Origin: Bacteroidota bacterium | GTDB lineage: Bacteria; Bacteroidota; Ignavibacteria; UBA10030; UBA8401 | DNA: 64,000 nucleotides | Direction of reading: 5' to 3' | NCBI GenBank assembly: GCA_049578505.1 | Contig: JBAUMC010000096.1 | Span: 26,693 to 90,692 of the forward strand | In this document: piece by piece, positions 19,514 to 28,769 of the stretch | Position numbering within the stretch: the first letter of the stretch is position 1 | How the letters are laid out: every line of letters starts with the position of its first letter | The notes under the pieces: model-generated | The model's database searches: none | What the model was told of the DNA's origin: nothing | What the model saw: the letters and a program-made list of their open reading frames with translations, nothing else | Position numbers and translations under genes: made by a program

Positions 19514-21265
19514 GTGTATACTAGTTTACAAGTTTCCATTGATGGAGCCTCAGGGTTGAATAATTTTTTACAGACTGGATTTCATTTTGTGAAACGTACG
19601 TTCACACAGACGGCCCTTCTCTCAATCTTCCTGTTCGCTGTCGCGGAAGCTTTTCCGGACAGCACAACAACCATATCCCCAATCGTAGCCACAGTCGGCA
19701 GTACTCAGATAAGCTATAAGCAGTTCAAAGACAGGTACGAAGACTACTTGGTATATACCGGCATCAAGGATAACAGGCGGGCACGGTACGCAATTCTTAA
19801 TAACATGATCAACGAGGTTCTGCTTCGTCAGTACGACGACAATTCCAAAGTCTATAGCAATCCGGAATATAAGAAAGAAATTTCGTGGGCACGAAAAGAA
19901 GCTGTGTTAGCGTTTCTGAAAGATCAGGAAGTGTACAAGAAAATAACGGTTAGCGATCAAGAGCTGCGAACGGCGTATCAACGGTCTAAAGTTAAGGTCT
20001 CGGTTCGTCATTTGTTTGCGCCGACGGAGAGCGAGGCGGAAAATCTTTACAGGCTGGTGAAGATGGGAGTGAGTTTCAAAGAACTGGCGAAACAGGTCTT
20101 TTCGGATACGACGTTGAGAAACAACGGAGGTAATCTCGGGTATATCACATGGGGAGAGACAGATCCGAATTTTGAAAGTGCCGCATATTCTCTAAAAATT
20201 GGAGAAGTGTCCCGGCCGGTGAAGACTGCTCAGGGCTACAGTATCATTAAGGTGGACGATAGGATTGAAGACCCGTTCACAACTGAAACGGAATTCCTTA
20301 ACCGAAAGAACAAGCTGGAACGAACATTGAAGATAGACAAGAAGCTCCCTTACGAGAAAGCTTATCTCGGAAGAGTTTTTGACACGACCAAAGTCAAATT
20401 CAATGAGAAGGCGTTGGAAGCTGTTTTTAACGACTTGCAAAATATGGGGAATCATAGTATTGAATCTAATGATCATTTGACAAAAAGCTTTCAATATTGT
20501 GTCCAGTACAATAAGAAGAAGTACTCGGCAAAGGATATAGAAAATAAGATGCTCGAAGTGCCCCAATATAGCCGCAACGTCATGACAAACGTGAAACGCC
20601 TTAAAGATGCTGTTCTTGGATTGCTCATGCAGGATGTACTTTTGGATATTGCGAAAGAAAAAGGGTATGACACGACATCGTATGTTACAGAGACGTTCGA
20701 CAACCTGGCAAACAACATCTACTTAAACTATAAAAGGAATGAAGTTCTCGCTTTGGTTCCGGTCGCGGATTCAGAGATTGCACGGTACTACAAGCAGAAC
20801 ATCGCGCACTATTCCAATGAACCAGAAATGAATGTGCAAGAAATTGTCGTCGAGAGTGATTCTCTTGCTTCCACGGTAAGGGAAAAAATCGAGCTCGGCG
20901 AAGATTTTGGATCGCTTGCCGTGAAATACTCGCTGAGAACTTGGAGTGCGAAGAACGAAGGCATTATGGGGCTCTCTCCTGTATCAAATTACGGAGAATT
21001 GAAGGATACGCTGTGGAGTTCCGACGTTGGGAAGGTTATCGGTCCCCTGGCATTTGACAAGTACTTTGGTATTTTCCGCGTTCTGGATAAGAAAAATGGA
21101 GATCCGATTGACATCAGTGCCGTGCGTCCTCAGATAGTGAAAGCTATTGAAAATGAAAAGGGATTCCCTTATATGAAGAGGCGCCTGGAAGGTCTTTCAA
21201 AACTCACGACGATCAAAGTGTACGACGATCTTGTTAAAAACTATACCATGAATTTACCCGGCTAG
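19514..21265 (+). CDS. SurA/PpiD-like peptidyl-prolyl isomerase (parvulin domains)
   Basis: Contains VRHLFAPTESEAENLY...GGNLGYITWGETDPNFESAAYSLKIGEVSRPVKTAQGYSIIKV and a second PpiC-like domain near the C-terminus. The start is uncertain; GTG 19589 would give a clean signal peptide. Confidence 0.8.
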   Translation: MYTSLQVSIDGASGLNNFLQTGFHFVKRTFTQTALLSIFLFAVAEAFPDSTTTISPIVATVGSTQISYKQFKDRYEDYLVYTGIKDNRRARYAILNNMINEVLLRQYDDNSKVYSNPEYKKEISWARKEAVLAFLKDQEVYKKITVSDQELRTAYQRSKVKVSVRHLFAPTESEAENLYRLVKMGVSFKELAKQVFSDTTLRNNGGNLGYITWGETDPNFESAAYSLKIGEVSRPVKTAQGYSIIKVDDRIEDPFTTETEFLNRKNKLERTLKIDKKLPYEKAYLGRVFDTTKVKFNEKALEAVFNDLQNMGNHSIESNDHLTKSFQYCVQYNKKKYSAKDIENKMLEVPQYSRNVMTNVKRLKDAVLGLLMQDVLLDIAKEKGYDTTSYVTETFDNLANNIYLNYKRNEVLALVPVADSEIARYYKQNIAHYSNEPEMNVQEIVVESDSLASTVREKIELGEDFGSLAVKYSLRTWSAKNEGIMGLSPVSNYGELKDTLWSSDVGKVIGPLAFDKYFGIFRVLDKKNGDPIDISAVRPQIVKAIENEKGFPYMKRRLEGLSKLTTIKVYDDLVKNYTMNLPG

Positions 21266-21295
21266 CACTATGTCCGAAAATTTCTGGAGAAATTT

Positions 21296-27690: not shown

Positions 27691-27743
27691 AGACATAGTG
27701 CTCAATTGAATAAATCAGATGAAATTTATTTTGGGAGCCTAAC

Positions 27744-28769
27744 GTGCTAAAAAAATATATTTGGACGATGACGGCCGCTTTATCTCTGCTGTCTGCTGCT
27801 TTGAACGCCCAGGATATAACCAAAACCGGGACCACGGCAGCAAAGTTCTTAAGTCTGGGTATTGGTCCCAGGGCGAACGCTATGGGGGGAGCATACACCG
27901 CGGTCGCCGATGATCCAACCTCGCTCTACTGGAATCCTGCCGGGATTGCGTCTGTTGATCAGTATGAGGCTCTGTTTACGTTCACCAATTTGTTTGCGGG
28001 GATCAATCTTGATTATTTCGGAATGGTCATACCCGCGGGCGATGCAGGGAACTTTGCATTGAACTTTACCGCCGTCAATTATGGCTCGATAGGCGTAACG
28101 ACAGAACAACAACCCGACGGCACGGGCGAAACATTCACTCCGGCCAGTTACGAATTTGGTGGGTCATATGCCAGAAATATCACCCAGGATTTTGCTGTCG
28201 GTGCTACCGCAAAATTAGTCACGGAAAATATTTATAATTCAAACGCTACGGGTTTTGCGTTCGATATTGGCACAAAATTTACGACTCCGTTTTATGGTGT
28301 AAAGTTTGCAAGTTGCATAACGAATTTTGGAACAAAAATGCAGATGTCGGGGAGCGATCTTCTGATCCGCTACAATGTCGACCCTGCGCGAGCGGGGAGC
28401 AATAATACGACTGATGCGAACATTGCGACCGATCAATTCGACCTTCCTTTACGGCTTCAGATTGGATTGGCGAGGGATTTCATGTTTCTGGATAACCAGA
28501 GATTAACACTCGCCGTTGACGGAGTTGTACCTAACGATAACAATGAATCGGTCAACGTGGGGGGAGAGTTAGCGTTGTTTGACAATGTCGTTTTTCTCCG
28601 CGGCGGCTATAAATCATTGTTCCTGAAGAATACTCAGGAAGGATTGACCCTGGGTGTTGGTCTCAAATACCAAAGGGCCGGATATATCGATATTGGGATT
28701 GATTATTCATACCAACAGTACACTTATTTGGGGAATGTAAACAGCTTTGGCGTGATCTTGAACTTTTAA
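27744..28769 (+). CDS. PorV/PorQ-family outer-membrane beta-barrel protein
   Basis: Signal peptide, then [39 protein letters not shown], an alternating beta-strand pattern, and a terminal F. Confidence 0.65.
   Translation: [341 protein letters not shown]

Follow-up and report, generated by a model that had tools for sequence, protein, structure and literature searches.

The window analyzed here, a stretch of 64,000 nucleotides (nt) of contig JBAUMC010000096.1 from a bacterium of the Ignavibacteria, carries a single long plus-strand locus between 18.4 and 46.4 kb. The subject of this report is a group of genes in it that encode a SurA/PrsA-like parvulin peptidyl-prolyl isomerase (PPIase), a TonB-dependent receptor (TBDR), a giant protein and a barrel of the PorV/PorQ family. 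The PPIase (583 amino acids, aa; 19514-21265, on the plus strand like all window genes below unless stated otherwise) has matches to Rotamase, Rotamase_3 and SurA_N; the TBDR (894 aa; 21296-23980) matches the Pfam models CarboxypepD_reg, Plug and TonB_dep_Rec; the giant is a 1,234-aa open reading frame (ORF; 23986-27690); and the barrel (341 aa; 27744-28769) matches NF033709. An earlier sequence-only reading of this DNA had pointed to four co-directional genes with small gaps, and its coordinates are exact, the gaps being 30 nt (PPIase/TBDR), 5 nt (TBDR/giant) and 53 nt (giant/barrel). A fifth gene (28845-30734; Por_Secre_tail, CBM_48) encodes a starch-binding surface protein with modules resembling the carbohydrate-binding modules (CBMs) CBM48 and CBM20, followed by a canonical type IX secretion system (T9SS) C-terminal domain (CTD) of type A.

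The receptor is placed among TonB-dependent receptors by its plug (PF07715, E 2.4e-11) and its barrel (PF00593, E 5.3e-28), the latter of the 22-strand type, and its N-terminal domain is CarboxypepD_reg. It falls short of the SusC/RagA model TIGR04056, scoring 80 bits against a cut-off of 368 and matching over residues 26-231 only, and it has no sequence match in the PDB at E ≤ 1e-5. Across the whole window, Pfam/NCBIfam and further scans reveal no gene for a protein of the SusD family. In keeping with the earlier claim that a SusD-like follower is missing, the gene directly after the TBDR is that of the giant, which differs from SusD/RagB proteins in that it matches no SusD-type hidden Markov model (HMM) and has no cysteine in its signal peptide. 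A second TBDR is encoded on the minus strand at 61467-63737 (756 aa, CarboxypepD_reg, Plug and barrel); neither a giant nor a PorV-like barrel is encoded downstream of this receptor.

The barrel protein is recognized over its full length (residues 30-341) by NF033709, with 188.7 bits at a cut-off of 90, and the PorV/PorQ signature that the earlier reading had noticed at its N terminus aligns with Flavobacterium johnsoniae PorV (PDB 6h3i_F, E 3e-8), which bears that assignment out. It stays below the cut-offs of all three equivalog models, i.e., PorV (NF033710, 58 versus 250 bits), PorQ (NF033711, 105 versus 220) and PorV2 (NF052325, 78 versus 325). It forms a distinct PorV/PorQ subfamily of 14-strand-type (FadL-like) outer-membrane barrels, with the raw score nearest to PorQ. 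The possibility that it is the housekeeping PorV was considered and rejected, since it fails the PorV equivalog cut-off and each triad of TBDR, giant and barrel has its own copy, including the tandem triads described below.

The giant lies outside any characterized family. There is no Pfam or NCBIfam match for the whole protein, nor for four sub-segments of it at E ≤ 10, and a profile of 65 homologues finds nothing among PDB sequences. The family is nevertheless large: more than 1,157 close homologues were collected, and an exhaustive HMMER search returned 4,016 members at E ≤ 1e-3 and 560 at E ≤ 1e-30, counted as clusters at 50% identity. Database names in the family are "hypothetical protein" or a domain-level label only, and the named close homologues are all "hypothetical" save one, which NCBI calls "fibronectin type III domain-containing"; none of the members carries a Pfam domain.

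The domain anatomy was read from the sequence and from AlphaFold2 models of residues 35-1234 (pLDDT 77.9, pTM 0.66) and 35-694 (pLDDT 80.2, pTM 0.79). A Sec signal peptide without a lipobox cysteine (residues ~1-32; 23986-24081) precedes the first part of a β-supersandwich head (residues ~35-325; 24088-24960), modeled with a pLDDT mostly of 85-97. The head is interrupted by a D/N-rich insert (residues ~321-520; 24946-25545) of three repeats of about 70 residues with DxDxDG-type motifs, and by an acidic segment (residues ~521-590; 25546-25755; DNDGDW...GEGDG.PT.G.GEP..D.TD..E.DQIG) with many invariant columns, and is then resumed by a second part together with a long helix, according to the AlphaFold2 secondary structure (residues ~591-690; 25756-26055). 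A fibronectin type III (FN3)-like domain (residues ~695-825; 26068-26460) follows, then two to three further β-sandwiches with pLDDT about 90 (residues ~830-1132; 26473-27381), and finally a terminal domain of about 100 residues (residues ~1133-1234; 27382-27687), discussed below.

Several features that the sequence-only reading had ascribed to this protein can now be located. The Ca-binding-type loops are present: D-x-[DN]-x-[DN]-G occurs four times, with 0.22 occurrences expected from shuffled sequences. The description as a repeat protein applies to the D/N-rich insert at residues ~321-520 and not to the rest of the chain. This insert is specific to the starch orthogroup, the set of orthologues to which the window copy belongs, since it is absent from paralogues: it consists of 66-97% gaps in the paralogue alignment and is missing from the class of paralogues typified by P0166, in which residues 1-299 and then 300-450 align to the two head parts, bypassing the insert. 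The FN3-like segment is modeled as a β-sandwich (residues ~697-824), and whole-protein Foldseek matches are FN3 chains; the assignment is supported at the level of the fold, with no match to Pfam fn3.

Foldseek searches with the head retrieve supersandwich domains of GH94 glycoside hydrolases (GHs; cyclic glucan synthase, cellobiose phosphorylase), polysaccharide lyase family PL26, GH116, dextran dextrinase and the YidC P1 domain, with probabilities of 0.8-1.0, but with E-values of only 4e-4 to 1e-2 and TMt ≤ 0.35. The head is a predicted galactose-mutarotase-like β-supersandwich, a fold typical of non-catalytic domains of carbohydrate-active enzymes, with modest superposition scores. With the full-length model, the best Foldseek match is PorZ (5m11; E 4e-6, probability 0.99, TM only 0.08-0.12). 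Membership of the giant in the PorZ family was not accepted on this basis, as the matches to PorZ and to FN3 chains are of low TM only, and of the traits that define PorZ, two β-propeller domains and a retained CTD, the propellers are absent from the AlphaFold2 model, which shows a supersandwich and β-sandwiches instead.

Conservation is distributed unevenly along the giant. Across paralogues the terminal domain is the most conserved part (45-57% identity), followed by the FN3 region (39-48%) and then the acidic segment, which retains 37-43% identity even in paralogues and yet is modeled with pLDDT below 55. The β-sandwiches at ~830-1132, chiefly residues 881-1120, are the most variable (14-29% identity). 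The acidic segment and a stretch of the terminal domain (residues ~1140-1159; 27403-27462), both with pLDDT below 50, combine low model confidence with some of the highest conservation in the family, and are candidates for partner binding or Ca2+-dependent ordering.

The terminal domain, with the pattern VVPNPY...WE..NPY.SGRG.R.LHF.HLP insert...GKFAVIK, gives substance to the divergent CTD-like end of the earlier reading. In an hhalign comparison of 65 terminal domains with 49 canonical CTDs, it aligns to type-A CTDs with a probability of 94.6% (E 6.6e-8, 60 columns). It differs from a canonical CTD by a conserved insert of about 20 residues after the first strand (WE..NPY.SGRG.R.LHF.HLP), to which AlphaFold assigns low confidence. 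By profile comparison, the domain is a homologue and variant of the T9SS type-A CTD, and export by that route, with the domain retained, is proposed for it.

The arrangement of the genes was followed in two sets of loci. The orthologue set was drawn from relatives in 296 species-level genomes, of which 80 loci were fetched and their ORFs searched with the window proteins; the distant-paralogue set comprises 80 loci from a metagenome scan that started from 28 aligned paralogues sharing about 30-40% identity with the window giant. For these distant paralogues, a look-up of cluster members yielded hardly any taxonomic names. In orthologue loci the TBDR gene lies directly upstream of the giant in 75 of 75 cases and the barrel gene directly downstream in 78 of 78, both being adjacent in 73 of 73. 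The order persists in paralogue loci, with the TBDR upstream in 55/57, the barrel downstream in 63/65 and both in 45/46. Lack of synteny in related genomes and membership of the giant in a well-characterized family had been named beforehand among the outcomes that would refute the module; the triad is syntenic in both sets, and the giant falls in no characterized family. An ORF between TBDR and giant was never seen in the loci examined, and a canonical SusC/SusD-type pair was not encountered, the giant and not SusD following the TBDR in every one of them. Compared with the window TBDR, the receptors of triads reach 380-660 bits, and TBDRs encoded elsewhere in these flanks 64-129 bits. The distance matrices of the three triad proteins correlate with r = 0.94-0.97 (113 complete triads), which is consistent with the triad having been inherited and duplicated as a unit.

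Orthologue loci occur in Ignavibacteriota, where Stygiobacter electus and Rosettibacter primus are isolates that carry them, and in Calditrichota; in a metagenome-assembled genome (MAG) of the Calditrichaceae the same five genes lie amid GH13 and GH57 genes, and the giant-barrel pair is also present in a Marinimicrobia MAG. Among the phyla named in the sequence-only reading, the module is found in Ignavibacteriota, and beyond them in Calditrichota and, as the giant-barrel pair, in Marinimicrobia, and it is not shown for Rhodothermota, Fibrobacterota or Gemmatimonadota. One orthologous locus (L047, JAGHBR010000199.1) is binned as Caldisericaceae, a member of an otherwise unrepresented phylum, and may be mis-binned or horizontally transferred. 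On one metagenome contig (L085:1-14391) two triads stand in tandem, the first in the order giant, TBDR, barrel and the second in the usual order, which shows that a genome can hold several triads and that some rearrangement occurs.

Within the starch orthogroup the conserved block is larger than the triad. The order PPIase, TBDR, giant, barrel, CBM/CTD protein is essentially invariant, the CBM/CTD orthologue following the barrel in 63 of 68 loci, and the genes for GH13 enzymes, the GDSL/tetratricopeptide-repeat (TPR) protein and LacI shift around it. The Calditrichota orthologue of the CBM/CTD protein has faint CBM_20, X25 and SusF-like matches. In the window, the block ends at a hairpin directly after the CBM/CTD gene (30802-30836), which has a perfect 15-bp stem followed by TTTTGTTT on the plus strand and is a likely terminator. 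The conserved, transcription-sized unit accordingly consists of five genes, from the PPIase through the CBM/CTD protein to this hairpin. A and T runs flank the hairpin, and it could terminate transcription in either direction. A scan for sigma-70 promoters gave nothing above shuffle expectation and was not used.

The PPIase behaves differently in the two sets: it is encoded directly upstream of the TBDR in 69/71 orthologue loci but in only 1/47 paralogue loci. It was rejected as a universal component of the module on these counts, and is best viewed as a putative periplasmic chaperone limited to the starch orthogroup, which leaves TBDR-giant-barrel as the universal core. The four-gene module originally proposed therefore stands in its TBDR-giant-barrel core, with the PPIase confined to the starch orthogroup, where the CBM/CTD protein joins as a fifth gene. 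In one locus (L106:4063-5532) a PPIase-like ORF lies between giant and barrel.

A further line of evidence comes from family members with a different C terminus. A textbook type-A CTD stands at exactly the position of the terminal domain in about 15 of 150 representative paralogues, for which the NCBI name is "T9SS type A sorting domain-containing protein". The four such paralogues whose neighborhoods were compared (L163, L164, L165 and L166) are flanked by neither a TBDR nor a PorV-like barrel. In these cases the ordinary CTD occurs without barrel and receptor, and the variant domain accompanies them. That CTD type tracks the presence of the barrel is the strongest argument, resting on four cases, for the variant domain being the ligand of the barrel, and hence for the barrel as the proposed cognate anchor of the giant. 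The dedicated pairing of a PorV paralogue with the giant, put forward in the sequence-only reading, is strengthened by the CTD homology, by the conservation of the terminal domain and by these four paralogues, from which we infer the complex itself.

The canonical-CTD class (P0166, P0181, P0393, P0399, P0412) comprises proteins of about 950 aa with a supersandwich head and no D/N-rich insert, which stand alone. One of them (L165:10001-12883) belongs to a starch locus that also holds a complete triad, about 5 kb downstream of which it is encoded.

The surroundings of the triads are those of glycan utilization, and they vary with the copy. For the window, the LacI regulator upstream and the CBM protein, GH13 enzymes, GH57-CBM20 enzyme and sugar transporters downstream identify the locus as one for starch utilization, and the window copy as the starch orthogroup of the triad. 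In distant triads, the ORF upstream of the TBDR encodes a T9SS-CTD protein (Por_Secre_tail) in 34 of 37 cases, usually with a CBM9 or CBM4_9 module by Pfam, and the ORFs after the barrel encode sugar-binding proteins, PF10091, GH16, malectin, GH94, GH9, GH3, GH2 and GH130. Rosettibacter firmus, an isolate, has its genes in the order CBM9-CTD protein, TBDR, giant paralogue, barrel, ROK kinase, three GH3 and one GH5. Since the triad is kept in paralogue loci together with other glycan genes, it forms the core of loci resembling polysaccharide-utilization loci (PULs) for different glycans.

Taken together, these data lead us to favor, with moderate confidence, the interpretation that the giant is exported by the T9SS, is held via its variant CTD in its own PorV/PorQ-family barrel and acts as the glycan-capturing or capping partner of the TBDR; equally, the window module is probably the outer-membrane core of a SusD-less, T9SS-coupled PUL for starch. 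In the mechanism envisaged, all products would cross the inner membrane by Sec, with the SurA-like PPIase chaperoning them in the periplasm in the starch orthogroup. The T9SS would export the CTD proteins, among which the amylase and the CBM protein, having ordinary CTDs, would take the general PorV/PorU route and serve as conventional T9SS cargo that cuts and binds starch. The giant would instead dock with its variant CTD in its own barrel, whose extracellular loops would capture the domain and retain it uncleaved, just as PorQ holds PorZ and PorV holds PorU. Tethered beside the TBDR, the giant could bind glycan chains or oligosaccharides with its head, perhaps in the starch orthogroup also with the D/N-rich insert, and pass them to the receptor or cap it for TonB-driven import in a lid-like or SusD/SusE-like manner. 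Periplasmic GH13 and GH57 enzymes and the ABC (ATP-binding cassette) and MFS (major facilitator superfamily) transporters would then complete uptake, and co-expression of the unit with the amylases may be expected.

Published work supplies precedents for the individual steps. PorZ and PorU keep their CTDs and are held by PorQ and PorV, respectively, type-B CTD cargo is clustered with cognate PorP/SprF barrels, and it has been proposed that cognate PorV-like barrels shield CTDs from cleavage (PMC10202324). PorV binds CTDs with its extracellular loops (PMC10994853), and FadL-like barrels can hold surface proteins via loops (PMC12578637). For Bacteroides TonB-dependent transporters (TBDTs) other than SusC, lids other than SusD are encoded alongside the transporter (bioRxiv 10.1101/2023.03.17.533168).

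Several points weigh against this interpretation. Physical contact among giant, barrel and TBDR rests on inference. Neither the whole giant nor its C-terminal 100 residues are recognized by the CTD models PF18962 and TIGR04183, even at E ≤ 10, so that its dependence on the T9SS is putative, and the core genes of the T9SS lie outside the window, their presence being deduced from three canonical CTD proteins in the locus. Known lids, i.e., SusD and the alternative lids of Bacteroides, are lipoproteins and the giant is not. The E-values of the head in Foldseek are modest and its TM-scores low, and the fold is no proof of glycan binding. Mantel correlations like those among the triad proteins can come from shared descent alone, and the neighborhood comparison of canonical-CTD paralogues comprises four paralogues only.

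The same parts could also be assembled differently. Giant and barrel might be a locus-specific copy of PorZ and PorQ that processes or attaches ordinary CTD cargo near the receptor and has no direct role with glycan or TBDR. PorZ is after all the best match of the full model, the barrel comes closest to PorQ of all the equivalogs, almost every triad has one or more canonical CTD proteins beside it, and the CTD of PorZ is itself retained on PorQ (PMC10202324). The PorZ match, however, probably reflects the β-sandwich and CTD domains, given its low TM-score and the lack of predicted propellers; the supersandwich head is of the type found in carbohydrate enzymes; and in the species studied a single housekeeping attachment complex serves all cargo, which leaves a copy per locus, 5 nt from a TBDR, unexplained. 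We consider a PorZ/PorQ copy unlikely. The supersandwich head raises the separate question of whether the giant is a surface-anchored enzyme of an unrecognized carbohydrate-active family, cutting polymer at the mouth of the TBDR in a role like that of SusG. Domains of this fold are known from GH94, GH116, GH15-like and PL26 enzymes, mutarotases use them for catalysis, the acidic segments are strongly conserved, and the want of a match to any known family leaves room for a new activity. On the other hand, the models show β-sandwiches throughout after the head and no catalytic domain of the (α/α)6, TIM-barrel or propeller type, and one and the same family, with conserved regions outside the head, occurs in α-glucan and β-glucan loci that have their own GHs; an enzymatic giant thus seems quite unlikely to us.

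The least probable explanation, which we regard as highly improbable, makes the giant an adhesin or cell-surface layer protein of a generic kind that has an anchor barrel of its own and sits next to the TBDR through operon hitch-hiking, with no functional link to transport. It would account for the FN3/Ig-chain architecture, which resembles that of the adhesins Epf and MpIBP, and T9SS cargo proteins of large size that have a cognate barrel, SprB/SprF for instance, are indeed adhesins (PMC10202324). It does not sit well with a TBDR-giant-barrel order kept through deep divergence and paralogy, with a TBDR that co-diverges with giant and barrel, with neighborhoods that are consistently glycan-utilization loci, or with the joint loss of barrel and TBDR in family members with canonical CTDs.

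Compared with known systems, the module resembles SusC/SusD with SusE/F in outline: a transporter with a carboxypeptidase-regulatory-like N-terminal domain is directly followed by the gene of a large extracellular partner, and the regulated locus around the pair also encodes glycan-binding proteins of the cell surface, GHs both there and in the periplasm, and sugar transporters of the inner membrane. The components differ, as the TBDR fails the SusC/RagA model and the giant is unrelated to SusD, with no TPR-like fold and no Pfam match, is two to three times larger, is not a lipoprotein, and has a T9SS-type C-terminal domain and its own barrel. With PorZ-PorQ and PorU-PorV of Porphyromonas gingivalis it shares a barrel of the PorV/PorQ family and, for PorZ, the best structural match of the giant; in these known pairs a surface protein with an unremoved CTD stays on the barrel. 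Here, in contrast, the pair is encoded per glycan locus in synteny with a TBDR, the giant has a supersandwich head and not β-propellers, its CTD has the conserved insert of about 20 residues, and the barrel reaches the cut-off of neither the PorQ nor the PorV equivalog.

SprB/SprF of F. johnsoniae, with a type-B CTD, is similar in that very large T9SS cargo is encoded beside a dedicated FadL-like barrel thought to be its anchor (PMC10202324); in our case the CTD is type-A-like, the barrel belongs to the PorV/PorQ and not the PorP/SprF family, and the likely context is nutrient uptake with a TBDR rather than gliding adhesins. The alternative Bacteroides lids of Price, Deutschbauer and Arkin (bioRxiv 10.1101/2023.03.17.533168) likewise combine a non-SusC TBDT with an adjacent, non-homologous extracellular partner, and conserved proximity is the main evidence in both cases; those lids, however, are small lipoproteins for small substrates, whereas the giant is a T9SS-type protein of about 1,200 residues with its own barrel in polysaccharide loci. 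In BamG-BamH of the Bacteroidota β-barrel assembly machinery (BAM), a FadL-like 14-strand barrel also holds a surface protein by its loops beside a larger barrel (PMC12578637), but the family (FadL/Toluene_X), the function (assembly of outer-membrane proteins) and the type of partner (a lipoprotein) are different. A description of the triad was not found in the full-text literature searched, including that on Melioribacter, Caldithrix, T9SS effectors, glycoside transporters, BAM and the translocon, subscription literature being mostly outside the coverage. The system thus consists of known part types in an apparently undescribed combination, built around an uncharacterized protein family, and resembles a PUL-type TonB-dependent uptake system.

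Polysaccharide uptake in the Fibrobacteres-Chlorobi-Bacteroidetes (FCB) group is known almost entirely through the SusC/SusD paradigm of Bacteroidota. The present results point to a second, widespread architecture, in which the partner of the receptor is a T9SS-type giant with its own PorV-family anchor. If this is correct, glycan loci that PUL predictors requiring SusD have missed become recognizable in Ignavibacteriota, Calditrichota and Marinimicrobia, phyla abundant in soils, sediments, wastewater and the ocean; PorV paralogues that are specific to a cargo would also have a natural representative outside the attachment complex, and type IX secretion would be linked to TonB-dependent import. 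As a tentative extension, for which we put the chances at somewhat below even, TBDR, giant and barrel would form a three-component "utilisome", the SusC/SusD equivalent of the FCB phyla other than Bacteroidota (Ignavibacteriota, Calditrichota, Marinimicrobia and others), with a T9SS-delivered, barrel-tethered giant that caps or feeds the transporter and so couples the T9SS to TonB import, and with the variant CTD as a third, barrel-specific class of T9SS sorting or anchoring signal. Because cultured carriers exist (Rosettibacter, Stygiobacter), the hypothesis is directly testable.

The remainder of the starch locus consists, upstream, of the LacI-family regulator (18455-19507; Pfam LacI and Peripla_BP_3), a type of gene that recurs upstream of many triads but at varying positions. 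Downstream of the hairpin (30898-46365), Pfam identifies a periplasmic-type GH13 enzyme, the GDSL/TPR protein, a GH13 enzyme with a CTD, a GH57-CBM20 enzyme and transporters, namely two MFS proteins and an ABC sugar transporter with a binding protein and two permeases. In the GDSL/TPR protein (32881-34782; 633 aa), a membrane segment at the N terminus is followed by a GDSL/SGNH hydrolase domain and, at the C terminus, by TPR repeats; most loci of Ignavibacteriota and Calditrichota have its gene along with the starch module, in variable position and strand. Near the starch locus lies a carbamoyltransferase gene (15867-17690; Carbam_trans_N/C), a counterpart of which is found in an unrelated metagenome locus (L165:15203-17053), followed there by an SxtJ-like gene; the carbamoyltransferase may be a conserved neighbor. 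Upstream of the locus, at 14400-15827, there is a gene for an M64 (IgA-peptidase-like) metallopeptidase, which is probably unrelated.

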